A stretch of 32,000 bases of DNA. Source: Intrasporangium sp. Its GTDB lineage: Bacteria; Actinomycetota; Actinomycetes; Actinomycetales; Dermatophilaceae. Location: positions 44,387 to 76,386 of the forward strand of contig NZ_JBDIAQ010000003.1 in assembly GCF_039812505.1 (NCBI RefSeq), given 5' to 3'. Of this stretch, positions 1,032 through 28,942 are shown piece after piece. Both the position numbers and the translations under genes were made by a program. The notes under the pieces were generated by a model, which saw only the letters and a list, made by a program, of their open reading frames with translations, did not search any database and was not told the origin of the DNA. Numbering within the stretch: position 1 is the stretch's first letter; the number at the start of each line of letters is the position of its first letter.

Positions 1032-4817
<3,786 letters not shown>

Positions 4818-12834: not shown

Positions 12835-12910
12835 GGCGTCATCCGCCCAATCGGTCGTCGGTCGCGTGGAGGTGGACCCGGCGCGGGTCGGCAGGGGCCA
12901 GTCGGGAAGC

Positions 12911-13969
12911 CTAGTCGGTGCCGGGCACCAGCTCGGCCAGGGCGCGCAGGATGGTGCGCTGCCCCTCCCCGGTCGGTGCGTGCGGTGCCACGGCCAGCGT
13001 GGTGACCCCGGCCGTGGCGTAGCGGCCGATGCGGCGGGCGATCCGGTCGGCGGGGCCGATCAGGGCCGTCTCGTCGATGAACTCCAGCGGGACCGCGGCC
13101 GCGGCCTCGCGGGGTCGGCCGGCCAGGAAGAGGTCCTGGACGCGGGCGGCCTGCTCCTCGTAGCCCATCCGGCAGGCGAGCTGGTTGTAGAAGTTCTTCT
13201 CCCGCGAGCCCATGCCGCCGAGGTAGAGCGCGCAGTAGGGCCGCACCGCGTCCGCGGCGCGTTCGACGTCGTCGTGCAGCACGACCGGGACCGTCGCGAC
13301 GACGTCGAAACCGGCCATCGGAGCGGCGGCGTCGGCCCGGCCGGAGGCCCGGCGCCCCTTCTCGATCGCGTCCAGCAGGTCGCCGGAGTGCTCGGGGCTG
13401 TAGAAGATCGCCAGCCACCCGTCGGCGATCTCGCCGGTCAGCTCGAGGTTCTTCGGGCCGACCGCGGCGAGGTAGACGGGCAGGTCGGGGCGGTGCCCGC
13501 GGATGGTCAGGCGCAGCGCCTTGCCGGGACCGTCCGGCAGCGGCAGGGTCCAGAACCGGCCGGCGTGCTCGAGCGTCCGGCGGGCGAGCGCCATCCGGAC
13601 GATCTCGACGTACTCTCTCGTCCGGGCCAGCGGGGCGGCGAACCGCACCCCGTGCCAGCCCTCGCTCACCTGCGGGCCGGAGACGCCCAGGCCGAGCTGG
13701 AACCGCCCGCCGGAGAGCATGTCGAGGGTGGCTGCCGTCATCGCCGTCATGGCGGGAGTCCGCGCGGGGATCTGCAGCACCGCGCTGCCGAGCCTGACCC
13801 GCTGCGTGCAGGCGCCCACCCACGACAGCACCGTGACGGCGTCGGACCCGTAGGCCTCGGCCGCCCAGACGCTGTCGTAGCCGAGGGTGTCCGCCAGGAC
13901 GGCGTTCGCGACCAGGTCGGTCGGTGCGCCACCGGGTCCCCAGTACCCGAGGTTGAGGCCGAGTCTCAT
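12911..13969 (-). CDS. LLM-class (luciferase-like) F420-dependent oxidoreductase, 352 aa
   Basis: 'MRLGLNLGYWG', 'GYDSVWAAEAYGSDA' and 'GRFQLGLGVSGPQVSEGWHG' are typical of actinobacterial LLM F420-dependent enzymes. Confidence 0.85.
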   Translation of the reverse strand: MRLGLNLGYWGPGGAPTDLVANAVLADTLGYDSVWAAEAYGSDAVTVLSWVGACTQRVRLGSAVLQIPARTPAMTAMTAATLDMLSGGRFQLGLGVSGPQVSEGWHGVRFAAPLARTREYVEIVRMALARRTLEHAGRFWTLPLPDGPGKALRLTIRGHRPDLPVYLAAVGPKNLELTGEIADGWLAIFYSPEHSGDLLDAIEKGRRASGRADAAAPMAGFDVVATVPVVLHDDVERAADAVRPYCALYLGGMGSREKNFYNQLACRMGYEEQAARVQDLFLAGRPREAAAAVPLEFIDETALIGPADRIARRIGRYATAGVTTLAVAPHAPTGEGQRTILRALAELVPGTD

Positions 13970-14053
13970 GACGGTGAGGCTATCGGTCCACCGTCGCGGT
14001 CCCGGGTCAGCGGCCCGGTGGAGCCGATCCCCGCCGTCCGGGGCCGGCGCCGG

Positions 14054-14398
14054 TCACTCGTCGTCGTCCTCCTCGTCCTCGTCGTCGAAGTCGTACTCGT
14101 CATCGTCGTCATCGTCGTCATCGGAGTCGTCGTAGTCGTCCGAGTCGAGTCCGGCATAGACACCGTCGTCGTCGGAGTCGTCCTCCTCCATGTCGAGGTC
14201 CTCGCCGTAGACGGACAGCGGCGTGGCCACCTCGGTGGCGTCGAACAGCGCCTCGTCGTAGTCGTCGAACGCCTCCGCGAGGTCGTGCGCCGCGGCGATC
14301 ACCGTCGGATGGTCCGGGTCACGGCTCGAGGTGGCCGCCTCGTAGTGGCGCTCGAGGGCTGCGATGAGCTGCTCCAGGGCAGCGCGCGCGTCGCTCAT
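14054..14398 (-). CDS. Small conserved hypothetical protein with a helical N-domain and poly-Asp/Glu C-terminal tail, 114 aa
   Basis: ATG at 14398 ('MSDARAALEQLIAALERHYEAA...'). About 37 of the last 50 residues are D/E. High GC3. The upstream part of track ORF 14054..14623 has no coding character. Confidence 0.65.
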   Translation of the reverse strand: MSDARAALEQLIAALERHYEAATSSRDPDHPTVIAAAHDLAEAFDDYDEALFDATEVATPLSVYGEDLDMEEDDSDDDGVYAGLDSDDYDDSDDDDDDDDEYDFDDEDEEDDDE

Positions 14399-14422
14399 GG
14401 AAAGACCGTAGTGGACGCGGCG

Positions 14423-14470
14423 GGTCGTGCACACACCTTCGCCCACGCTCCTGGCGGTGTGTGCCCGACC
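14423..14470. promoter_or_regulatory. 15-bp inverted repeat (14/15 matches) in a divergent intergenic region
   Basis: GGTCGTGCACACACC (14423-14437) and GGTGTGTGCCCGACC (14456-14470), with an 18-bp spacer. It lies between the acidic-protein start (14398, -) and the DUF5703 start (14525, +). Confidence 0.5.
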
Positions 14471-14524
14471 GCGGTCCCGGGGCACGGGCACGGCAGGCCC
14501 GGCGGGGCCGGCAGCGGTGTCACA

Positions 14525-14725
14525 ATGGCCGTGATGAGCGAACTGAGCGAGTACGAGTACCGGGTCCTGACCTTCGACCGGCACACCTCGAAGGCGGACG
14601 CGCGTCAGGCGGTCCGCGAGCACGCCGAGTACGGCCGCTGGGAGCTGGCTCGCTCGGTGATCTACGTCGGCGGGATCCGCCGGATGTGGCTGCGCCGCCG
14701 GATCATGCGCGTCCGGCGCACGTGA
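14525..14725 (+). CDS. DUF5703-family small protein, 66 aa
   Basis: 'EYEYRVLTFDRHTSKADARQAVREHAEYGRWELARSVIYVGGIRRMWLRRRIMRVRR' matches my recollection of the actinobacterial DUF5703 pattern (HAEYGxWEL...RRRI). The start could instead be ATG 14534. Confidence 0.7.
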   Translation: MAVMSELSEYEYRVLTFDRHTSKADARQAVREHAEYGRWELARSVIYVGGIRRMWLRRRIMRVRRT

Positions 14726-17802: not shown

Positions 17803-17858
17803 GGGAGCCGCGGCCCGGCGCGGCGCGGGTCGGGCCCGGCGCACTACGCTTGCATGTC

Positions 17859-19082
17859 ATGGCATCACAGGCGCTGCCCGTCTCCGTCGACGACGTCCTG
17901 GCCGCCCGGCGGCTGCTCGAGGGTGTGGTCCGGCCGACCCCCCTGGAGCACAGCCGTGGCCTGAGCGAGCGTGTCGGCGCCGAGACCTACCTCAAGTGCG
18001 AGAACCTCCAGCGCGCCGGGTCGTTCAAGATCCGCGGCGCCTACAACCGCATGGCCCGGCTCAGCGACGCGGAGAAGGCCCGCGGCGTGGTCTGCGCCAG
18101 CGCGGGCAACCACGCCCAGGGCGTCGCGCTCGCCGCCCAGCTGCTGGGCCTGAAGGCGACCGTGTTCATGCCCGTCGGCGCCCCCCTGCCCAAGCTGCAG
18201 GCCACCCGGGGCTACGGCGCGCAGGTCGAGCTGTACGGCACGACCATCGACGACTGCCTCGTGAAGGCCAAGGAGTTCGAGCAGACCACCGGCGCCGTGC
18301 TGATCCACCCGTTCGACCACGCCCACATCGTCGCCGGGGCGGGCACCTGCGGCCTCGAGATCCTCGAGCAGTGCCCCGACGTGCGGACCGTCATCGTCGG
18401 GACCGGCGGCGGCGGGCTGATCTCCGGCATCGCGACCGTGGTCAAGGCCCACCGGCCCGAGGTCACGGTCCTCGGGGTGCAGGCCGAACGCGCGGCGGCC
18501 TACCCGCCGTCGCTGGCCGCCGGCCACCCGGTGCCGCTGGCCAGGATGTCGACGATGGCCGACGGCATCGCCGTCGGGTGCCCCGGCGAGGTGCCCTACG
18601 CGATCGTCAGCCACCTGGTCGACGGCATCCGCACGGTCACCGAGGAGCAGTTCTCGCGGGCCGTGCTCTACCTGCTCGAGCGGGCCAAGCTCGTCGCCGA
18701 GCCGGCTGGGGCCGCCAGTGTGGCCGCGCTGCTCGACGCCGGCAAGGGCGCCTTCGAGGGCCCCGTGGTGGCCGTGTTGTCCGGCGGCAACATCGACCCG
18801 CTGCTGCTGCTGCGCATCATCCGGCACGGCCTGACCGCGGCCGGTCGCTACCTGCAGTTCCGGGTCCGGGTGCCGGACCGGCCCGGCTCCCTGGCGGCCC
18901 TGCTCGACCACCTCGCCAAGGCCGAGGCCAACGTGCTGGAGATCGAGCACGTGCGCACCGTCGTCCCGCTCGGCATCGACGAGGTCGAGATCGGGGTGCG
19001 CGTGGAGACCAAGGGTGCCGAGCACGCCGCCGCGGTGATCGCGGACCTGCAGGCCCAGGGGTTCGACCCCCATCTCGACTGA
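17859..19082 (+). CDS. ilvA: Threonine ammonia-lyase (short form with a single ACT-like regulatory domain), 407 aa
   Basis: PLP-lysine motif 'GSFKIRGAYN', 'ASAGNHAQGVA' and glycine loop 'GTGGGGLISG'. C-terminal ACT-like region 'YLQFRVRVPDRPGSLAALL'. ATG at 17859; the track ORF's upstream 480 codons are off-frame over the MFS gene. Confidence 0.92.
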   Translation: MASQALPVSVDDVLAARRLLEGVVRPTPLEHSRGLSERVGAETYLKCENLQRAGSFKIRGAYNRMARLSDAEKARGVVCASAGNHAQGVALAAQLLGLKATVFMPVGAPLPKLQATRGYGAQVELYGTTIDDCLVKAKEFEQTTGAVLIHPFDHAHIVAGAGTCGLEILEQCPDVRTVIVGTGGGGLISGIATVVKAHRPEVTVLGVQAERAAAYPPSLAAGHPVPLARMSTMADGIAVGCPGEVPYAIVSHLVDGIRTVTEEQFSRAVLYLLERAKLVAEPAGAASVAALLDAGKGAFEGPVVAVLSGGNIDPLLLLRIIRHGLTAAGRYLQFRVRVPDRPGSLAALLDHLAKAEANVLEIEHVRTVVPLGIDEVEIGVRVETKGAEHAAAVIADLQAQGFDPHLD

Positions 19083-19104
19083 GGCGAGCCGCCAGGCCGA
19101 CGCG

Positions 19105-19872
19105 GTGCTCCCCCGGATCAGCGCCACCCGCTACGTGACCCCGCTGCGGGAGGGCGGCTCGCTGCCGGGCATCGTGGAGGCGAGCGACTGCGGCACCTAC
19201 GTGCTGAAGTTCCGGGGGGCCGGGCAGGGCCTGAAGGTGCTCGTCGCCGAGGTCGTCGTCGCCCGCCTCGCCCGGCTCGTGCAGGTCGCCGTCCCCGACC
19301 TCGCCGTCGTCGAGCTGGACGAGCGGATCGCCCGGTACGAGGCGGACGAGGAGGTGCAGGACCTGCTGACCGCCTCGGTCGGCACCAACCTCGGGGTCGA
19401 CTTCCTGCCCGGCGCGTTCGGCTACGACGGGTCCCGGCCACCCTCGGCCGACCTGGCCGAACGGATCGTCTGGCTCGACGCGCTGACCGCGAACGTCGAC
19501 CGGACCTGGTCCAACCCGAACCTGCTGGTGTGGCACGGCCGGACCTATGCGATCGACCACGGCGCCGCGCTCTACTTCCACCACTCGTGGCCGAGCCGGC
19601 CCCCGGACCCGGACCGGTTCGCCGCCCAGCCGTTCGACGCGAGCCGGCACGTGCTGCGCGACGTCGCCGGCGACGTGGCGGCCCGGCACGCCGACCTGTC
19701 CGCGCAGCTGACCCCGGCCGCGGTTCGCGCGGCCGTCGGGGCGGTCCCGGACGGCTGGCTCGAGCCGACGCCCTGGCTCACGGACCCCGCGGCGGTGCGA
19801 GCGGCATACGTGACGATGCTGCTGACCCGCCTGCAGGACCCGCACGCCTGGCTGCCGGGAGGCCCGCGGTGA
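19105..19872 (+). CDS. HipA-like / PI3-4-kinase-fold core kinase family protein (no HipA N-terminal subdomains), 255 aa
   Basis: 'RYVTPLREGGSLPGIVEA', 'YVLKFRGAGQG...LVAEVV' (Lys/Glu pair), catalytic-loop-like 'NVDRTWSNPNLL' and 'AIDHGAAL' (metal-binding DxG equivalent). GTG start 22 nt after the ilvA stop. Confidence 0.8.
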   Translation: MLPRISATRYVTPLREGGSLPGIVEASDCGTYVLKFRGAGQGLKVLVAEVVVARLARLVQVAVPDLAVVELDERIARYEADEEVQDLLTASVGTNLGVDFLPGAFGYDGSRPPSADLAERIVWLDALTANVDRTWSNPNLLVWHGRTYAIDHGAALYFHHSWPSRPPDPDRFAAQPFDASRHVLRDVAGDVAARHADLSAQLTPAAVRAAVGAVPDGWLEPTPWLTDPAAVRAAYVTMLLTRLQDPHAWLPGGPR

Positions 19873-20282
19873 AGGCCTACGAGTACGTCGTGCTGCGGTT
19901 CGTCCCGCGCGTGGACCGCGAGGAGTTCGTCAACGTCGGCATCGTGCTGCACAGCCAGGACGCCGGCTTCCTCGACGCCCGCTGGGAGGTCGACGAGCAG
20001 CGCCTGGGCGCCTTCGCGCCGGGCTGCGACCTGGCGGCGGTGCGGGCCGCGCTCGAGCGCATCCGGGCGGTGTGCCGAGGACAGATCGGCCGGGGCCTGC
20101 CGACCTTGGAACGGCCGGGACAGCGCTTCGGCTGGATCGCCGCGCCACGGTCGACGGTGGTCCAGCCCGGGCCCGTGCACGGCGGGGTGACCGAGGACCC
20201 GGCGCGCGAGATCGAGCGGCTGCTGGAGCGCTACGTCGGACCGGAGCGGCCGTCGGGCGGTCCCGGGCTTACCATCGGGTGA
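19869..20282 (+). CDS. DUF3037 domain protein, 137 aa
   Basis: 'YEYVVLRFVPRVDREEFVNVGIVLH' matches the DUF3037 N-terminal signature as I recall it. The GTG start overlaps the kinase stop (GTGA, 19869-19872), indicating translational coupling. Confidence 0.8.
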   Translation: MKAYEYVVLRFVPRVDREEFVNVGIVLHSQDAGFLDARWEVDEQRLGAFAPGCDLAAVRAALERIRAVCRGQIGRGLPTLERPGQRFGWIAAPRSTVVQPGPVHGGVTEDPAREIERLLERYVGPERPSGGPGLTIG

Positions 20283-20299
20283 CATGCGGAGGTGCGGTG

Positions 20300-20782
20300 A
20301 TGAGCAGACGCGGCGAGCACCACACCCGGCCGGACCGGTTGTCGGGTGACCAGTTCGCCCTGCTCTTCACCTTCCGGCGGGCGATGCTGCAGTTCACGAA
20401 GTGGAGCGAGCAGCGGGTGCGCAAGGCCGGCCTCACCCCGCAGCAGTACCTGCTGCTGCTCGCCGTGCGGGCCCGCACCGCCGACTCGCCGCCGAGCGTC
20501 GGCGACCTGGCCGGCGAGCTGCTGATCCGGCCCAACAGCGCGATCGAGCTGGTCAACCGGGCCGAGTCGCTCGGCCTCGTCAGCCGGCAGCGGGACACTC
20601 GTGACCAGCGGGTCGTGCGGGTGACCCTCACCGGCAAGGCCCACCAGATGCTCGACGGGCTCGCCGCCGCGCACCTGGCCGAGCTCGAGCGCGCGGCCGA
20701 GTCCCTCAGCATCTCCGAGGACTTTCTCACCACTCTCTCAGCGAAGTACCTCGGCGCCGGCGATACGCAAACCGGGCAGTGA
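20300..20782 (+). CDS. MarR-family transcriptional regulator, 160 aa
   Basis: Winged-HTH core 'LTPQQYLLLLAVRA...SVGDLAGELLIRPNSAIELVNRAESLGLVSRQRDTRDQRVVRVTLTGKA'. RBS GGAGGTG at 20288-20294. Starts 17 nt after DUF3037. Confidence 0.88.
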   Translation: MSRRGEHHTRPDRLSGDQFALLFTFRRAMLQFTKWSEQRVRKAGLTPQQYLLLLAVRARTADSPPSVGDLAGELLIRPNSAIELVNRAESLGLVSRQRDTRDQRVVRVTLTGKAHQMLDGLAAAHLAELERAAESLSISEDFLTTLSAKYLGAGDTQTGQ

Positions 20783-20819
20783 TCGACCGCGATTTGCGGG
20801 TATAACCTCGAGATAGATC

Positions 20820-20866
20820 GCATCCCGATGTAATCACGTCTGGATGTGGTGGCATCCCGATGTAAT
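20820..20866 (+). promoter_or_regulatory. Perfect 15-bp direct repeat GCATCCCGATGTAAT x2 (32-bp period) in the AT-rich spacer upstream of dxs
   Basis: Copies at 20820-20834 and 20852-20866. Each contains a -10-like TGTAAT, and TATAAC lies at 20801-20806. It sits in the 125-bp marR-dxs spacer, the most AT-rich stretch I noticed in the window. Confidence 0.6.
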
Positions 20867-20907
20867 GGTCGCGGCCCCGACACGGCCGTGGTCGGAGCGG
20901 AGGCGCA

Positions 20908-22806
20908 GTGTCGGTTCTGGAGACCATCAGCGGCCCGGAGGACCTCGGCAGGCTCGACCCGGAGGAGCTGGCTCGGCTGGCGGCGGAGATCCGCCAGGTC
21001 CTGGTCGAGACCGTCTGTTCCACCGGGGGCCATCTCGGCCCCAACCTCGGCGTGGTCGAGCTGACGATCGCGCTGCACCGCGTGTTCGACTCGCCGCGCA
21101 CCCCGATCGTCTTCGACACCGGGCACCAGTCGTACGTGCACAAGCTGCTGACCGGGCGGCTGCCCGGCTTCGCCTCGCTGCGCCAGGCCGGTGGGCTGTC
21201 CGGCTACCCCAAGCGGTCCGAGTCGGCGCACGACCTGGTGGAGAACTCGCACGCCTCGACCGCGCTGGCCTACGCCGACGGGCTGAGCCGGGCGATCGCC
21301 GGCCGCGGCGGCACCGAGCCGGTGGTGGCGGTGATCGGCGACGGGGCGCTGACCGGCGGGCTGGCCTGGGAGGGTCTGAACAACATCGGCTCGTCCGGGC
21401 GGCGCGTCGTGGTGGTGCTCAACGACAACGACCGCTCCTACGCCCCGACCGTCGGCGGGCTGCCCGAGCACCTGGGCCGACTCCGGGACCGGACCGGCTA
21501 CGCGGGCATCGTGGCCCGGCTCGGTGGCGCCGGCGCGCCGGGCCCGGACGGTGCGTCCGGTCCTGCCCACCGGTCGCGCGCCGCGTCCGGGGTGAGCCTG
21601 TTCCAGTCGATGGGCCTGGACTACCTCGGCCCGGTCGACGGGCACGACCTGACCGCCCTCGAGAGCGCCCTGGGCCGGGCGCGGGCGCACGAGCGCCCGG
21701 TCGTGGTGCACGTGCGCACCGAGAAGGGGCACGGCTACCTGCCCGCCGTGCTGGACGAGGCCGACCACCTGCACGCGGTCGGCGTGATCGACCCGGCCAC
21801 GGGCGCGCCGCGCAAGCCCGCCGCCCGGACCTGGACCGACGTGTTCGGGGCCGCTCTGGCCGACCTGGCCGAGCGGCGGCCGGACATCGTCGCGATCAGC
21901 GCGGCCATGGTCGGGCCCACCGGGCTGCGCACGCTGGCCGCGCGCCACCCGGAGCGCTGCGTCGACGTCGGCATCGCCGAGCAGCAGGCGCTGGTCAGCG
22001 CCAGCGGGATGGCGATGGGCGGGCTGCACCCGGTCGTGGCGCTCTACTCGACGTTCATGCACCGCGCGTTCGACCAGACCCTGATGGACGCGGGCCTGCA
22101 CGGGCTGCCGGTCACGCTCGTGCTGGACCGGGCCGGCATCACCGGACCCGACGGCCCGAGCCACCACGGGCTGTGGGACCTGACCCTGCTGGGGGCCGTG
22201 CCCGGGATGCGCGTCGCGGCCCCACGCGACGCCGCCTCGCTGGTCGAGGAGCTCGGCGAGGCCGTGGCGCACGTCGGGCCGAGCGCGCTGCGCTTCCCCA
22301 AGGCCGCTGCCGCCGACGCGCTGCCGGCGCTCGACCGGATCGCCGGGATGGACCTGCTGCGCCGCGCCCCCGACCCGCACGTGCTGCTGCTGGCGGTCGG
22401 TGCGCTGGCCGGCGCCGCGGTGGCGGCCGCCGACCGGCTGCTGGCCGACGGGGTGCGCTGCACGGTGCTGGACCCGCGCTGGGTGCTGCCGGTCAACGCG
22501 GCCCTGCCCGACCTGGCCGCCGAGCACGACCTGGTCGTGACCGTCGAGGACGGCCTGCGCGGCGCCGGGGTCGGGGCCCGGGTCGCCCGCGCGGTCGCGG
22601 ACGCGGACGTCGAGACGCCCGTGCGCGTGCTCGGGGTGCCGGACCAGTATGTCGCCCACGGCACCCGCGCGAGCATCCTGCACGACTTCGGCCTGGACGC
22701 CGACGGGGTCGCCACCACGGTCGCGACGGCACTGGCCGGCACGACCGGGGTGGGCGGCATACGCCACCGGGTCGCGGCCGGCCGGCGCGTCCGGAAGCCG
22801 GCGTGA
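20908..22806 (+). CDS. dxs: 1-deoxy-D-xylulose-5-phosphate synthase, 632 aa
   Basis: 'GGHLGPNLGVVELTIALHRVFDSP', 'DTGHQSYVHKLLTGR', 'GDGALTGG' and 'NDND' ThDP motifs. GTG start with GGAGCGGAGG 4 nt upstream. Confidence 0.95.
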   Translation: MSVLETISGPEDLGRLDPEELARLAAEIRQVLVETVCSTGGHLGPNLGVVELTIALHRVFDSPRTPIVFDTGHQSYVHKLLTGRLPGFASLRQAGGLSGYPKRSESAHDLVENSHASTALAYADGLSRAIAGRGGTEPVVAVIGDGALTGGLAWEGLNNIGSSGRRVVVVLNDNDRSYAPTVGGLPEHLGRLRDRTGYAGIVARLGGAGAPGPDGASGPAHRSRAASGVSLFQSMGLDYLGPVDGHDLTALESALGRARAHERPVVVHVRTEKGHGYLPAVLDEADHLHAVGVIDPATGAPRKPAARTWTDVFGAALADLAERRPDIVAISAAMVGPTGLRTLAARHPERCVDVGIAEQQALVSASGMAMGGLHPVVALYSTFMHRAFDQTLMDAGLHGLPVTLVLDRAGITGPDGPSHHGLWDLTLLGAVPGMRVAAPRDAASLVEELGEAVAHVGPSALRFPKAAAADALPALDRIAGMDLLRRAPDPHVLLLAVGALAGAAVAAADRLLADGVRCTVLDPRWVLPVNAALPDLAAEHDLVVTVEDGLRGAGVGARVARAVADADVETPVRVLGVPDQYVAHGTRASILHDFGLDADGVATTVATALAGTTGVGGIRHRVAAGRRVRKPA

Positions 22807-22813
22807 GGTCGCG

Positions 22814-23638
22814 ATGAGCACCGCCATGCACGCTGCCGAGGCCGGCGAGAACTTCCCCGTCGCGCTGCGGGTGCTGCCCGCCCGGGTGCGCCGCGAGCTG
22901 CACGCCACCTACCGGTACGCCCGGTACGTCGACGACCTCGGCGACGAGTTCGCCGGCGACCGCACCGCCGCGCTCAGGCAGGTCGCGGAGCAGGTCCGCA
23001 GCCTCTACGCGGGTGGCCGCGTCACCGACCCGGTCGTGGCCGGTATGGCGCCGCTGGTGACCCGGGCCGGGGTGCCGGCCCACTGCCTGCTGCGGCTCGT
23101 CGAGGCGAACCTGCGCGACCAGGGCGTGGCCCGGTGCCACGACTTCGCCGAGCTGCTCGACTACTGCCGCCTCTCGGCCAACCCGGTCGGCGAGATCGTG
23201 CTGGCCGTCTTCGGGGTGGCCACCCCCGACCGGGTCGAGCTGTCCGACCGGGTCTGCACGGCGCTGCAGCTGCTCGAGCACTGGCAGGACATCGGCGAGG
23301 ACCATGCCCGCGGGCGGGTCTACCTGCCGAAGGAGGACCTCGACCGGTTCGGCGTCACCGAACCGGAGCTCGGCGCCGACCGCGCGAGCCCGGCGCTGCG
23401 GCGGCTGGTCGCCTTCGAGACCGAGCGGGCCGCCGCCTGGCTCGGCGCGGGGGCCCCGCTGGTGTCGACGCTGCGCGGGTGGGCCCGGCTGGCGGTCTCG
23501 GGCTACGTGGCCGGGGGTCGTGCGGCGGCCGCCCGGATCCGGCGGGCCGGCTACGACACGCTGGCCGGCGAGGTCAAGCCGACCCGGTCGGACATCGCGA
23601 CCGCCTGGGCCGATGGGTGGCTGAGGAGGGCCGGATGA
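22814..23638 (+). CDS. hpnC: Hydroxysqualene synthase (squalene-synthase-like, HpnC type), 274 aa
   Basis: 'GENFPVALRVLPARVRRELHATYRYARYVDDLGDE' (the ENFPVA motif is typical of HpnC). Second Asp-rich region 'WQDIGEDHARGRVYLP'. Confidence 0.85.
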   Translation: MSTAMHAAEAGENFPVALRVLPARVRRELHATYRYARYVDDLGDEFAGDRTAALRQVAEQVRSLYAGGRVTDPVVAGMAPLVTRAGVPAHCLLRLVEANLRDQGVARCHDFAELLDYCRLSANPVGEIVLAVFGVATPDRVELSDRVCTALQLLEHWQDIGEDHARGRVYLPKEDLDRFGVTEPELGADRASPALRRLVAFETERAAAWLGAGAPLVSTLRGWARLAVSGYVAGGRAAAARIRRAGYDTLAGEVKPTRSDIATAWADGWLRRAG

Positions 23639-24540
23639 ACGTCACGACCGCCTACGAGCGCTGCGAGCAGATCACCCGCACCGAGGCGCGCAACTTCTCC
23701 TACGGGATCCGGCTGCTGCCGCGCCGGCAGCGTCAGGCGCTGTCCGCCGTATACGCCACGGCCCGGCGGATCGACGACATCGGCGACGGCGACGGCCCCT
23801 GCGCGCAGCGGCAGGCGGAGCTCGAGTCGCTCCGGACGCGGCTGGACGCGGTCGCGGGACGACGCGCCCGCCCCGACCGAGCCAGCCGCCCGCGCCCCCC
23901 TGCGCCGACGCAGGACGACCCCGTCCTGACCGCGCTCGCCGACGCCGCCGCCCACCTGCCGATCCCGCTCGACGCCTTCGACGACCTCATCGACGGCTGC
24001 CTGGCCGACGTCGAGGGCCGCCACTACGAGACGTTCGAGCAGGTCGTCGGCTACTGCCGCCACGTCGCGGGCTCCGTCGGCCGGCTCTCGGTCGGCGTCT
24101 ACGACCCCGCCCGGCTCGCTGCCGCCGAGCCGCTGGCCGACGACCTCGGTGTCGCGCTGCAGCTGACGAACATCCTGCGCGACCTGCGCGAGGACCGGCT
24201 CATGGGCCGGGTCTACCTGCCGCAGGAGGACCTCGACCGGCACGGGTGCACCCTCACGATCGGCGCCGACGGGACGATCACCGACCCGCCGGAGCGGTTC
24301 GACGCGCTGGTGCGCTTCCAGGCGCAGCGGGCCGAGGCGTGGTACGCGCGCGGGCTGACCCTGCTGCCCCTGCTCGACCGGCGCAGCGCCGCCTGCACGG
24401 CAGCGATGGCCGGCATCTACCACCGCCTGCTCGGACACATCGCGGCCGACCCGGGCGCGGTGCGCGGCCGGCGGCTGTCGCTCTCGACCCCGGCCAAGGT
24501 GTCCGTCGCGGTGCACGCGATCGTGCGGAGGGCCGCATGA
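23635..24540 (+). CDS. hpnD: Presqualene diphosphate synthase (HpnD type), 301 aa
   Basis: 'RNFSYGIRLLPRRQRQALSAVYATARRIDDIGD' and 'NILRDLREDRLMGRVYLP'. ATGA overlap with the hpnC stop, with GAGGAGG RBS at 23623-23629. Contains an Arg/Pro-rich insertion (RRARPDRASRPRPPAP). Confidence 0.85.
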   Translation: MNVTTAYERCEQITRTEARNFSYGIRLLPRRQRQALSAVYATARRIDDIGDGDGPCAQRQAELESLRTRLDAVAGRRARPDRASRPRPPAPTQDDPVLTALADAAAHLPIPLDAFDDLIDGCLADVEGRHYETFEQVVGYCRHVAGSVGRLSVGVYDPARLAAAEPLADDLGVALQLTNILRDLREDRLMGRVYLPQEDLDRHGCTLTIGADGTITDPPERFDALVRFQAQRAEAWYARGLTLLPLLDRRSAACTAAMAGIYHRLLGHIAADPGAVRGRRLSLSTPAKVSVAVHAIVRRAA

Positions 24541-25973
24541 GCGACCGACCGGTGATCGTCATCGGCGGCGGGCTGGCCGGGATCACCGCCGCGCTGGACC
24601 TTGCCGGGGCGGGTCGCCAGGTCCTGCTGCTCGAGGCGCGACCGCGCCTCGGCGGCAGGGCCGCCTCCGCCCGGCGTGACGGGCGTCCGCTCGACACCGG
24701 CGTGCACGTCATCCTGCGCTGCTACCAGCAGTACCGGTCGCTGCTGCGTCGGCTCGGCGTCGAGCACCTCGTCCCGATCCAGGACCGCCTCGACATCACC
24801 GTCCTGCGACCCGACGGGGACCGCGCGCGACTGACCCGGGCGCGGCGCGGCCCGGCGCCGCTGCACCTGCTCCCCGCCCTGCTGCGGTATGCCGCCCTCC
24901 CGCCGGCCGCGCGCCTGTCGGCCGCCACCGCGGCGGCGGCGCTGCGCCGGGTCGACCCGGACGACCCCCGCGCCGACCTCGAGTCCTTCGGGTCGTGGCT
25001 CGCGCGCCACGGCCAGACCCGGCTGTCCGCCGAGCGGCTGTGGGGGCTGGTGTCCACGGCCGCGCTGAACCTCCCACCGGCAGAGGCATCCCTCGGCCTC
25101 GCCGCCCGCGTCTTCCGCACCGGCCTGCTCGACGGGGTCGACTCCGGCGACATCGGCATCCCCGTGGCCCCACTTGCCGCGCTGCACGAGGAGCCCACCC
25201 GTCAGGCGCTCCTCGCGGCCGGGGCCCGGGTCACCCTCGGGTGCAAGGCGCTCGGGATCTCCCGGGACACCTCGGGCCTGACCGTCACGGTGCGCGAACG
25301 GGCCGGTGCACCGCACCCCGTCGAGGCCGAGTCGGTCGTCCTGGCCGTGCCGCACGACCACGCCGCGGAGCTCGTGCCGGCCGACGCGGCGCCCGACGCC
25401 GCCGACTGGCTCGGCCTCGGGCACTCGGCGATCGTGAACGTGCACCTGGTCCTGGACCGCCCGGTCCTGCCGGTCCCCTTCGCGGCGGTGCCCCAGAGCC
25501 CGCTCCAGTGGGTCTTCGACCGGACCGCGCCGAGTGGACGCGAGGGCACCGGCACGCAGTACCTCGTCTGCTCGGTATCGGCCGCCGACACCGCCGTCCG
25601 CACCCGTGCCGAGGACCTGGTCCGGCTGCACCTGTCCGAGCTGCGCCGCCACCTGCCGGAGGCCCGGCGCGCGGCGCTGCTGGACGGGTTCGTGACCCGG
25701 GAGCCGCAGGCCACCTTCCGGCAGGGCCCCGGCAGCCGGCAGTGGCGCCCCGGACCGGCGACCCGCTGGGACGAGCTGGCCCTCGCGGGCGCATGGACCG
25801 TGCCCGGCTGGCCCGACACCCTCGAGGCCGCCGTCCGCAGCGGGCACGCGGCGGCCGACCTGCTCGCCGGCGCGGACCGAGGCGGCGCGAGCCGCGCCGG
25901 CCAGGCGAGACGGCCGGCGCGCACTCCCCTGCACCAGCACGATGACCGACACGAGATGGAGGTGACGTCATGA
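24537..25973 (+). CDS. hpnE: Hydroxysqualene dehydroxylase (FAD-dependent amine-oxidase fold, HpnE type), 478 aa
   Basis: N-terminal dinucleotide fold 'VIVIGGGLAGITAALDLA...LLEARPRLGGRA'. Positioned after hpnCD. ATGA overlap with the hpnD stop. Low-complexity C-terminal tail. Confidence 0.85.
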   Translation: MSDRPVIVIGGGLAGITAALDLAGAGRQVLLLEARPRLGGRAASARRDGRPLDTGVHVILRCYQQYRSLLRRLGVEHLVPIQDRLDITVLRPDGDRARLTRARRGPAPLHLLPALLRYAALPPAARLSAATAAAALRRVDPDDPRADLESFGSWLARHGQTRLSAERLWGLVSTAALNLPPAEASLGLAARVFRTGLLDGVDSGDIGIPVAPLAALHEEPTRQALLAAGARVTLGCKALGISRDTSGLTVTVRERAGAPHPVEAESVVLAVPHDHAAELVPADAAPDAADWLGLGHSAIVNVHLVLDRPVLPVPFAAVPQSPLQWVFDRTAPSGREGTGTQYLVCSVSAADTAVRTRAEDLVRLHLSELRRHLPEARRAALLDGFVTREPQATFRQGPGSRQWRPGPATRWDELALAGAWTVPGWPDTLEAAVRSGHAAADLLAGADRGGASRAGQARRPARTPLHQHDDRHEMEVTS

Positions 25974-26983
25974 CCAGCGTCATGACCGACAGCGTGGGCA
26001 CCGCCCGGACCGCGACCGTCGAGCTGCTGCGCTCCGCGCTCGACCGGCTCGACCCGCACATGCGCCACGTGTGCGGCTACCACCTCGGCTTCTGGGACAC
26101 CGACGGCACCCCGAGCACCCCGGGCGGCAAGGGCGTGCGCCCCGAGCTGGTCCTGCTCGGCACCGCCGCGGCGGGCCGCGACCCGCTGGAGGCCGTACCG
26201 GCCGCGGTGGCCGTCGAGCTGGTGCACAACTTCTCGCTCGTGCACGACGACGTCATGGACGGCGACGAGCTGCGCCGGCACCGCACCACGGTGTGGGCCG
26301 CCTTCGGGCTGTCCACCGCCATCCTCGCCGGTGACGCGATGCTCGCCCTGGCCGGGGAGATCCTCGGCGCGGCCCCCTCGCCCACGGTCGGGTACGCCGT
26401 GCAGGCGCTGACCGCGACGACCCGGCGGCTGATCGCCGGGCAGACCGCCGACCTGGCCCTGGAGACCCGCCCCGACGTGACGGTGGCCGAGTGCCTGCGG
26501 ATGGAGGCCGACAAGACCGGCGCCCTGCTGGCCTGCTCGTGCTCGATCGGCCCCATGCTGACCGACGCCCCGGCGAGCAGCGCCGCGGCCCTGGCCGAGT
26601 TCGGGGAACGGGTCGGCCTGGCCTTCCAGCTGGACGACGACCTGCTGGGCATCTGGGGCGCCCCGGAGCACACCGGCAAGCCGGTCCTGTCCGACCTGCG
26701 CTCGCGCAAGAAGTCGGCACCTGTCGTGGCCGCCCTGACCTCCGGCACGACCGCCGGCGATGCGCTGCAGGCGCTCTACCGGCAGGAGGCGCCCCTCGAC
26801 GAGGACGAGCTGTACAAGGCGGCCGCCCTCGTCGAGGAGGCGGGCGGGCGCACCTGGGCCGAGCACCGCGCCGCCGCCGAGCTCGACGCGGCGCTGGGCA
26901 TCCTGGCGGACGCGTTCGCCGGGGACGAACGCGCGATCCCGTTGTCGGACATGGCGGTCCGCCTCGCCGGCCGGGACCGCTGA
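25970..26983 (+). CDS. Short-chain polyprenyl diphosphate synthase (probable FPP synthase supplying HpnD), 337 aa
   Basis: First and second Asp-rich motifs 'LVHDDVMDGDELRRHR' and 'FQLDDDLLG', with 'KTGAL'. Phe at -5 of the first motif suggests a short product. ATGA overlap with the hpnE stop. Confidence 0.88.
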   Translation: MTSVMTDSVGTARTATVELLRSALDRLDPHMRHVCGYHLGFWDTDGTPSTPGGKGVRPELVLLGTAAAGRDPLEAVPAAVAVELVHNFSLVHDDVMDGDELRRHRTTVWAAFGLSTAILAGDAMLALAGEILGAAPSPTVGYAVQALTATTRRLIAGQTADLALETRPDVTVAECLRMEADKTGALLACSCSIGPMLTDAPASSAAALAEFGERVGLAFQLDDDLLGIWGAPEHTGKPVLSDLRSRKKSAPVVAALTSGTTAGDALQALYRQEAPLDEDELYKAAALVEEAGGRTWAEHRAAAELDAALGILADAFAGDERAIPLSDMAVRLAGRDR

Positions 26984-26995
26984 GAGGAGCCCGGG

Positions 26996-28942
26996 ATGAC
27001 CATGCAAGCCGACCGGGACACGACGGCCGGGCCGTCCGGCAGGTCGGCCGACCGCGCCGCACTCGAGCGGGCGGTGGGCCGCCTGCGCGCCCTCCAGCAC
27101 CCCGACGGGTGGTGGAAGGGAGAGCTCGAGACCAACGTCACGATGGAGGCCGAGGACCTGCTCATGCGCGAGTTCCTCGGCATCCGGGGGGCGCGCGAGA
27201 CCGAGTGGACCGCCCGCTGGATCCGGGGCCGGCAACGCCCGGACGGCTCGTGGGCCACCTTCCACGGCGGACCGGCCGACCTGTCCACGACGGTCGAGGC
27301 CTACCTCGCGCTGCGCCTGGCCGGGGACGCCCCGGAGGCGCCGCACCTGGTCCGCGCCCGCGAGGTGGTCCACTCGCTCGGCGGGGTGGAGCGCTCGCGC
27401 GTCTTCACCCGGATCTGGCTCGCGCTGGTCGGGCTCTGGCCGTGGGACCGGCTGCCCGCGGTGCCGGTGGAGCAGATCCTGCTGCCGGACCGGTTCCCGC
27501 TGTCCGTCTACGACTTCGCCTGCTGGGCCCGCCAGACGATCGTGCCCATCGCGGTGCTGTTCGCCCTGCGGCCCGCCGTCCCGCTCGGCCTCACCATCGA
27601 CGAGCTGTATGCCGCCCACCCGGGCACCTCGGGGACGTCGGCTCCCGACGGGGCGGGCTCGGCGGCATCCGAACCCGCGCCGCGGCGGCCGGCCCGCACC
27701 CTGTTCGAGCGGGGGCTGGGCGGCGCGCTACGCGCCTTCGACACCCACCACCCGGGCAGGCTGCGCCGGCTGGCGCTGCGCCGCGCCGAGACGTGGATCG
27801 TCGAGCGCCAGGAGGCCGACGGCTCGTGGGGCGGGATCCAGCCGCCGTGGGTCTACTCGCTGATGGCGCTGCACGCGCTGGGCCGCCCGGTCGACGACCC
27901 GGTGATGCGGCTCGGGCTCGAGGGCTGGGAGCGGTTCACCGTCGAGGAGCCGGGCCCGGACGGTCCGGTGCGGCGCCTCGAGGCGTGCCAGTCCCCGGTG
28001 TGGGACACCGCCCTGGCGCTGGTCGCGCTCGGCGACGCCGGGCTGGCCAAGGACGACCCGATGGTCGCGCGGGCGGTGGACTGGCTGGCCGGCGAGGAGA
28101 TCGCGGTCCGCGGCGACTGGGCGGTGCGCCGGCCCGACCTGGCCCCGGGCGGCTGGGCCTTCGAGTTCGACAACGACCTGTACCCCGACGTCGACGACAC
28201 CGCCGAGGTCGTGCTCGGCCTGCACCGGGTCGGTGCGGCGGACCGCCCCGGTGTGGGACGTGGCATCGACTGGGTGCTGGGCATGCAGTGCCGGGACGGC
28301 GGGTGGGCCGCGTTCGACGCCGAGAACACCAGCACACTGCCGGCCGCCCTGCCGTTCTGCGACTTCGGGGCGGTCACCGACCCGCCCAGCGCCGACGTCA
28401 CCGCGCACGTCGTCGAGATGCTGGCCCTGACCGGCCGCGGCCACACCGCGGCGGCCTGCGCCGGCCGGGACTGGCTGCTGCGGGCCCAGGAGCCGGACGG
28501 CTCGTGGTTCGGGCGATGGGGCGCCAACCACGTCTACGGCACCGGCGCGGCGCTGCCCGCCCTCATCGCCGTCGGCGTACGGCGCTACGAGCAGCCGATC
28601 CGGCGCGGTGTCGCCTGGCTCGAGGAGGCCCAGAACGCCGACGGCGGCTGGGGCGAGGACCTGCGCTCCTACCGCGACGAGTCGCAACGCGGGCGCGGCG
28701 CCTCCACCGCGTCGCAGACCGCCTGGGCCCTGCTCGGGCTGCTGGCCGCCGGGGACTCCGGCTCCAGCGCCGTCCGCCGCGGCATCCGCTGGCTGGTCGA
28801 GCACCAGCTCGCCGACGGCGGGTGGGACGAGCCGCAGTACACCGGCACCGGCTTCCCCGGCGACTTCTACATCAACTACCACCTCTACCGGCTGGTGTTC
28901 CCGGTCAGCGCGTTGGCACGGTACCTGCGGAGCGGGTCATGA
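26996..28942 (+). CDS. shc: Squalene-hopene cyclase, 648 aa
   Basis: Catalytic 'DVDDTAEV' (DxDDTA). Multiple QW repeats ('RQEADGSWGG', 'AQEPDGSWFGRWG', 'AQNADGGWGE', 'HQLADGGWDE'). RBS GAGAGGAG overlaps the preceding stop. Confidence 0.95.
   Translation: MTMQADRDTTAGPSGRSADRAALERAVGRLRALQHPDGWWKGELETNVTMEAEDLLMREFLGIRGARETEWTARWIRGRQRPDGSWATFHGGPADLSTTVEAYLALRLAGDAPEAPHLVRAREVVHSLGGVERSRVFTRIWLALVGLWPWDRLPAVPVEQILLPDRFPLSVYDFACWARQTIVPIAVLFALRPAVPLGLTIDELYAAHPGTSGTSAPDGAGSAASEPAPRRPARTLFERGLGGALRAFDTHHPGRLRRLALRRAETWIVERQEADGSWGGIQPPWVYSLMALHALGRPVDDPVMRLGLEGWERFTVEEPGPDGPVRRLEACQSPVWDTALALVALGDAGLAKDDPMVARAVDWLAGEEIAVRGDWAVRRPDLAPGGWAFEFDNDLYPDVDDTAEVVLGLHRVGAADRPGVGRGIDWVLGMQCRDGGWAAFDAENTSTLPAALPFCDFGAVTDPPSADVTAHVVEMLALTGRGHTAAACAGRDWLLRAQEPDGSWFGRWGANHVYGTGAALPALIAVGVRRYEQPIRRGVAWLEEAQNADGGWGEDLRSYRDESQRGRGASTASQTAWALLGLLAAGDSGSSAVRRGIRWLVEHQLADGGWDEPQYTGTGFPGDFYINYHLYRLVFPVSALARYLRSGS

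Follow-up and report, generated by a model that had tools for sequence, protein, structure and literature searches.

A HipA_2 kinase/DUF3037 gene pair of the chromosomal short form in Intrasporangium sp.

A 32,000-nucleotide (nt) stretch of the genome of Intrasporangium sp. (assembly GCF_039812505.1, contig NZ_JBDIAQ010000003.1, positions 44,387 to 76,386; hereafter the window) contains two overlapping rightwards-transcribed genes that code for an atypical serine/threonine kinase and a DUF3037 protein. By sequence, the pair belongs, together with PADLOC PDC-M66 and the experimentally tested system DS-6/HipAD, to the HipA_2 kinase/DUF3037 family, of which it represents the chromosomal short form. 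The kinase/DUF3037 pair type itself is already known; what is new here is its chromosomal form with a short partner. By analogy with the tested homologues, the kinase is probably a growth-arresting toxin, neutralized when the DUF3037 protein that is translated along with it binds to it directly. An earlier sequence-only reading of this DNA had presented the pair as uncharacterized, with no function assigned to either family. That description is out of date because the pair corresponds to PDC-M66 and homologous pairs, DS-6/HipAD and Retron-Sda1, have been validated as phage defense.

Organization of the gene pair

The two genes, their motifs and their translation signals are arranged as follows (window coordinates; aa, amino acids):

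19105–19872, forward strand: HipA_2-type atypical serine/threonine kinase, GTG start, 255 aa, core kinase only
Kinase residues E16-G17-G18-S19: putative Gly-rich loop
19207–19209: kinase K35
19498–19500: catalytic D132 of the kinase, in NVDRT
19555–19557: Mg-binding D151 of the kinase, in IDHG
19857–19862, forward strand: GGGAGG, a Shine-Dalgarno-like site (role predicted from sequence) 6 nt 5′ of the DUF3037 GTG and within the 3′ end of the kinase gene
19869–19872, forward strand: GTGA stop/start overlap, with the kinase TGA and the DUF3037 GTG in one tetranucleotide
19869–20282, forward strand: short-form DUF3037 protein, putative kinase-neutralizing partner, GTG start, 137 aa; the domain spans residues 6–123, and residues 128–137 are a non-conserved, low-confidence tail

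Both frames are taken as coding because the third-position GC content of the kinase gene is 0.97 and that of the DUF3037 gene 0.94, against a window value of 0.74; the overall GC content of the window is 74%. The kinase is identical to an NCBI protein of Intrasporangium sp. labelled ‘HipA family kinase’. The layout of open reading frames (ORFs) that the sequence-only reading had reported for the kinase, DUF3037 and MarR genes is confirmed, including the GTGA overlap and the start of the MarR gene 17 nt beyond the pair. A scan of positions 18800–21000 revealed no promoter-like or terminator-like sites, and there is no Rfam match in positions 18000–22000; a retron reverse transcriptase and its noncoding RNA are absent here.

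The kinase

The kinase matches the Pfam family HipA_2 (PF20613) above the gathering threshold (E 2.9e-12; 46.8 bits against a cut-off of 27), with residues 14–249 aligned to model positions 8–237 of 240. It also matches PADLOC PDC-M66A (E 4e-18) and the PHROGs family phrog_3162 (E 1.9e-16), and the kinase family is large, comprising 2370 clusters (50% identity) at E 1e-3 or better. In an alignment of 47 sequences with identities down to 40%, K35, D132, R133, N139, D151, H152 and G153 are invariant, whereas E49, N137 and the loop E16-G17-G18-S19 are at least 90% conserved. The kinase-core motifs that had been picked out by eye therefore stand, and the catalytic core is intact.

The AlphaFold2 model of the kinase has a predicted local distance difference test score (pLDDT) of 94.6 and a predicted template modeling score (pTM) of 0.93. 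A Foldseek search of the PDB with this model identifies a protein-kinase-like fold, with matches at E 2e-4 to 1e-3. The top matches are Helicobacter pylori CtkA (E 2e-4; template modeling score, TM, 0.51–0.58), phosphatidylinositol 4-kinase (PI4K) type II alpha and Fam20C; the Shewanella oneidensis HipA structure 4pu5 is matched at E 9.5e-4 with a TM of 0.45. Neither HipA_C (PF07804) nor a HipA N-domain is matched in Pfam at E ≤0.1, and a profile of the kinase finds no match among the sequences of solved Hip kinases (HipA and HipT). PF07804 and PF20613 do share a Pfam clan (CL0016), and KINtaro joins them as one family. Because sequence-level matches to PF07804 and to the solved Hip kinases are lacking, the term ‘HipA-like’ holds at the level of clan and fold, and the window kinase is not a classical HipA. 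Its length of 255 aa and the missing N-domain match bear out the earlier statement that the N-terminal subdomains of HipA are absent.

HipA S150 and HipT S57/S59 are autophosphorylation sites, and by analogy the conserved S19 in the Gly-rich loop of the window kinase may be one as well; in an hhalign alignment with the DS-6 kinase (DS-6A), S19 pairs with T25. Two further database matches of the kinase were rejected, one to NCBIfam TIGR03843 (SCO1664 family; E 0.077, 12 bits against a cut-off of 172) and one to PADLOC Cas3d (E 0.003).

The DUF3037 partner

The second ORF matches DUF3037 (PF11236) over the entire model (positions 1–118 of 118; E 3.7e-41; 140.5 bits against a cut-off of 22.6), as the sequence-only reading had proposed. 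Its matches to PADLOC PDC-M66B (E 1.4e-13) and phrog_5137 (E 3.2e-10) cover only profile positions 1–128 of 281 and 2–133 of 279, respectively. With a 72-sequence alignment as input, AlphaFold2 gives a model (pLDDT 87.7, pTM 0.82) of a compact alpha/beta domain in which the final ten residues are disordered. When compared with PDB structures the model finds nothing better than E 0.4, and the 50 best matches contain no HipS or HipA chain; a DUF3037 profile likewise has no match among PDB sequences. In BFVD, a few uncharacterized phage proteins have the DUF3037 fold (E 3e-6 to 1e-3, TM 0.49–0.59). The C-terminal tail GPERPSGGPGLTIG (window 20238–20279, residues 124–137) is missing from most relatives, and its pLDDT is below 50 from residue 128 onwards.

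The top conserved surface element of the protein is RF-x-W-x-x-APRST-x-x-Q-x-GPVH-x-G, which contains S95 and T96 (window 20151–20156). S95 does not vary in alignments that include sequences only ~40% identical, and T96 varies little if at all; both residues lie in an exposed APRST loop, and the equivalent residues in the DS-6 partner protein (DS-6B) are E and S. S95-T96 could be a phospho-acceptor or pseudosubstrate site, and the conserved APRST-containing stretch as a whole may be an interface or a site of phosphorylation.

Conservation of the pair

A scan for relatives, with one genome per species, yielded at least 598 genomes that carry one; the best 80 loci, almost all from Actinomycetota, were analyzed (individual loci are denoted L001 and so on). 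A DUF3037 homologue is located directly 3′ of the kinase and on the same strand in 79 of these loci and the 80th stops at a contig edge, such that the kinase-then-DUF3037 order is present at every testable locus (79/79). This adjacency is far beyond chance. Among 83 junctions examined (the related loci, three extra Intrasporangium calvum copies and the window), 53 have a 4-nt ATGA or GTGA overlap, and the others have small overlaps or short gaps. The DUF3037 partner is short across the relatives, with a median length of 127 aa (e.g. ~125 aa each in L006, L009, L012, L016 and L028). No third gene is conserved beside the pair at the 80 loci, and the flanking genes vary between lineages while the pair is unbroken.

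The two proteins also diverge together, with a mirror-tree correlation of 0.81 where none of 500 permutations exceeds 0.11, which shows co-inheritance and not necessarily physical contact. The dN/dS values of both genes are below 1 (0.2–0.4 for the kinase and 0.23–0.6 for DUF3037), although these are rough because third-position GC is ~97%. The adjacency, the overlapping junctions and the correlated divergence uphold the earlier proposal of an obligate two-gene unit.

Apparent fusions of the kinase and DUF3037 among cluster representatives of ~380–420 aa were rejected as Rosetta-stone evidence because their domain matches are incomplete, the pattern that frameshifts in high-GC metagenome ORFs spanning the 4-nt overlap would produce. 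The two are read as a single polypeptide of ~346–424 aa in L071 (6001–7254) and in P0126, P0160, P0199, P0132, P0147, P0174, P0187 and P0220. Most of these look like frameshift artefacts of metagenome assembly at high GC. The frame of L071 (417 aa) is intact and may represent either a genuine fusion or a long-read indel.

Relationship to known systems

Two homologous pairs have been studied experimentally. Within the operon of Retron-Sda1, the genes for a HipA-like kinase and a DUF3037 protein suffice for defense against phage Bas51; deletion of the kinase abolishes defense, and deletion of the DUF3037 gene is toxic (PMC12548924). The Sda1 DUF3037 protein differs from that of the window in having a C-terminal region that resembles a retron DNA-binding protein (PMC12548924). 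The Escherichia coli system DS-6, validated through DefensePredictor, consists of a HipA-related kinase (DS-6A) and a protein combining DUF3037 with DUF1829 (DS-6B) (PMC13092281); according to this paper, which cites Brenes and Laub 2025, the system was there given the name HipAD. A D139A catalytic mutant of DS-6A loses phage defense, the two proteins are predicted to interact by AlphaFold3 (interface pTM 0.76–0.79), and the C-terminal half of DS-6B is predicted with weaker confidence to contact DNA (PMC13092281).

Comparison with the DS-6 sequences, which were taken from the supplement of PMC13092281, reveals the same organization, with a kinase gene followed by a DUF3037 gene and a 4-nt overlap (DS-6 genes at 2415–3164 and 1591–2418). 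The window kinase aligns with DS-6A with an hhalign probability of 98.4% (E 6.6e-15); the catalytic Asp is present (window NVD132RT on DS-6A NAD139RT), and IDHG aligns with IDHN. The window DUF3037 protein aligns with DS-6B residues 3–129 (probability 92.3%, E 5.6e-7). However, DS-6B is 275 aa long, with DUF3037 at residues 7–125 and a DUF1829-like C-terminal half at 163–260 that has no counterpart in the 137-aa window protein. DS-6 differs further in being prophage-borne, and the DS-6A type is present in 45 IMG/VR loci with the long partner directly adjacent in 44. The relationship to PDC-M66 is similar, in that the window proteins match both the PDC-M66A and PDC-M66B models, but the PDC-M66B profile has 281 positions and describes a B protein of ~275–280 aa whose C-terminal domain the window protein does not have.

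Ten Hip families are distinguished by gene organization, and a DUF3037 partner is not among them (Gerdes et al. 2021; PMC8262856). The window kinase resembles classical Hip kinases in its protein-kinase-like fold, Gly-rich loop, D-x-x-x-x-N type loop and Mg-binding Asp, and like HipT, HipG, HipI, HipJ and HipM it is a core kinase without N-subdomain 1 (PMC8262856). It differs from classical HipA in that CtkA, PI4KII-alpha and Fam20C match it structurally as well or better. Unlike in HipBA, no HipB gene (Xre-type helix-turn-helix) is adjacent, as the sequence-only reading had already observed; the neighbours are ilvA upstream, and DUF3037 and then MarR downstream. The arrangement also departs from HipBST, as the window partner is neither HipB nor HipS and does not have the fold of HipA N-subdomain 1.

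Genomic context

The pair is located among housekeeping genes, in contexts that are conserved within each lineage. In the Intrasporangiaceae a major facilitator superfamily (MFS) gene is upstream, in Nocardioides the pair lies between recA-recX-PPK2 and cbiX-cysH-sulfite reductase genes, and in the Streptosporangiales it is followed by Gcn5-related N-acetyltransferase (GNAT) and hydrolase genes. In the window, ilvA is upstream and MarR, dxs and a hopanoid cluster are downstream, and defense genes are not among the neighbours. Kinase identity declines roughly in line with taxonomy across the relatives scan. A short-form pair is annotated on a Bacteroides finegoldii replicon too.

The gene upstream of the kinase (17850–19082) is of the PALP family and probably encodes the threonine dehydratase IlvA; it is situated between an MFS gene and the kinase and ends 22 nt before the kinase start. 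In Intrasporangium calvum (L001, 6669–8768) and other close relatives, the MFS gene abuts the kinase directly. Directly 3′ of the kinase, DUF3037 and MarR genes is a hopanoid-type cluster (20908–28942) containing dxs, two squalene/phytoene synthase genes, an amine-oxidase-type oxidoreductase, a polyprenyl synthetase and a squalene-hopene cyclase, which is not present at the equivalent position in I. calvum (L001). Both flanks of the window pair are thus rearranged, including the ilvA insertion, and the pair itself is intact.

Two loci on contigs assigned to Proteobacteria carry actinobacterial-type kinases. One (L023) is on a 1.9-kb contig labelled as a Deltaproteobacteria metagenome-assembled genome and encodes a kinase 76% identical to that of the window; the contig is probably mis-binned. 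The other (L078, Stenotrophomonas sp.; 54% identical) may reflect horizontal transfer or contamination. Elsewhere in the window, a 619-aa ORF (12866–14722) has a Pfam match only over its last 51 residues (DUF5703), and the DUF5703 gene of I. calvum is 64 aa long; the real gene is probably a short ORF near 14550–14722 and the 619-aa ORF a high-GC artefact.

The MarR-family gene

The gene that follows the pair in the window has these features:

20288–20292: GGAGG, a well-placed Shine-Dalgarno site ahead of the MarR gene
20300–20782, forward strand: MarR-family regulator, ATG start, 160 aa, 17 nt past the DUF3037 stop

The ORF matches Pfam MarR_2 (E 1.7e-07). The MarR gene is probably co-transcribed with the pair in the window, yet does not belong to the conserved module. 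A tblastn search of the 80 related loci found no homologue of the window MarR protein, and at 54 of 79 loci the ORF called next after the pair is read from the other strand; in I. calvum the position is occupied by a convergent SpoU methylase gene. Only one of the 80 loci, that of Nostocoides japonicum (L009), has a MarR gene after the pair, and it is not an orthologue. This MarR-family ORF (L009 7173–7652) starts 31 nt past the DUF3037 stop and is identical to the window MarR at 22 of 46 residues in the winged helix-turn-helix region; it may have been recruited independently beside the pair.

Between the end of marR and the beginning of dxs are 125 nt of AT-richer sequence, which contain a perfect 15-nt direct repeat, GCATCCCGATGTAAT, at 20820–20834 and 20852–20866 (32 nt start to start). 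This repeat could be a MarR operator, or it could serve to regulate dxs and the hopanoid genes.

Discussion

The tested homologues suggest how the window pair may act. Translational coupling would cause the kinase and the DUF3037 protein to be made together. The kinase would be an active atypical serine/threonine kinase that, when free, phosphorylates an essential cellular target and so arrests growth, and direct binding of the DUF3037 protein would keep it inactive; the kinase would be set free if the partner were lost or in response to a trigger, for instance an infecting phage. As the short DUF3037 partner is without the C-terminal half of DS-6B, neutralization of the kinase would proceed without that domain. 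Toxicity, neutralization and a role in defense are attributed to the window pair by analogy with its homologues, and published experiments on those homologues are in line with the suggestion in the sequence-only reading that DUF3037 could act as antitoxin or regulator (PMC12548924; PMC13092281).

Several observations weigh against a neutralized toxin. The window kinase is only ~27% identical to DS-6A, and the systems that have been tested are prophage-carried and have a ~275-aa partner with an extra C-terminal domain. The window type was found neither in IMG/VR viral contigs nor in phage records and is rare on plasmids, with 7 records of which most are megaplasmid-sized or larger and some are probably chromids or chromosomes. 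A housekeeping setting conserved within lineages is unusual for a defense or toxin-antitoxin module.

The same distribution suits the main alternative, a domesticated housekeeping signaling pair, in which a physiological kinase (e.g. in stress or growth control) is accompanied by DUF3037 as a regulatory subunit, activator or substrate and there is no role in phage defense. In favour of such a pair are the lineage-conserved neighbours in the Intrasporangiaceae, Nocardioides and Streptosporangiales, and in the window the ilvA, dxs and hopanoid genes rather than defense genes; the kinase roughly tracks taxonomy through at least 598 species genomes and is scarcely seen on mobile elements, and the exposed S95 and T96 of DUF3037 offer a candidate phospho-acceptor. 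We nevertheless regard it as unlikely, given that both proteins are homologous to a validated defense pair that becomes toxic when DUF3037 is lost, and that toxin-antitoxin modules on chromosomes may likewise be passed on vertically.

Two other readings concern what the neighbouring proteins contribute. The kinase could be one part of a split HipA as in HipBST, with DUF3037 as a HipS-like stand-in for the HipA N-terminal subdomain that both complements and inhibits it, a role that had been offered in the sequence-only reading. The kinase does lack the HipA N-terminal region (255 aa against ~440), its Gly-rich loop is near the N-terminus, and its partner is small and without a DNA-binding domain, as is HipS; but the DUF3037 model is confident and has neither HipS nor HipA among its 50 best PDB matches, and with the profile search of the PDB also empty this explanation is most improbable. 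Alternatively, MarR could complete a three-gene module by supplying DNA binding and autoregulation in trans, as HipB does in HipBST, in place of the C-terminal domain of long-form DUF3037 proteins. Its position 17 nt past DUF3037, a Shine-Dalgarno site of its own, the lack of a terminator-like site in between and the MarR ORF after the pair in N. japonicum fit this idea. It is made very unlikely by the missing homologues of the window MarR in the 80 related loci, by the opposite orientation of the next called ORF in 54 of 79, by the merely generic similarity of the N. japonicum protein (22 of 46 residues) and by the convergent SpoU methylase gene in I. calvum.

A neutralized growth-arresting kinase remains the preferred explanation. 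Under a further reading, the short-form pair might constitute a branch of its own within the HipA_2/DUF3037 family, chromosomal and passed on vertically, that resides beside housekeeping genes across Actinomycetota (and is found in Bacteroidota too), with the ~125-aa DUF3037 domain as the minimal kinase-controlling unit. Its role might then be endogenous (growth or stress control, or persistence), instead of or besides mobile phage defense, and relative to the HipAD systems of prophages it might be either ancestral or domesticated. We consider this possible but somewhat doubtful.

The annotations ‘HipA family kinase’ and ‘DUF3037’ can be replaced by that of a PDC-M66/HipAD-type kinase module, and two forms of the family can be separated: one is carried by prophages, has a long partner and is the form tested experimentally, and the other is chromosomal, has a short partner, was recorded by the scan in some 600 species genomes or more and is mostly from Actinomycetota among the 80 loci examined. 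If the short form acts as a toxin-antitoxin system, the DUF3037 domain alone would suffice for control of the kinase. Actinobacteria would then possess a widespread, vertically inherited growth-arrest kinase, which would bear on phage defense and antibiotic tolerance in the phylum.

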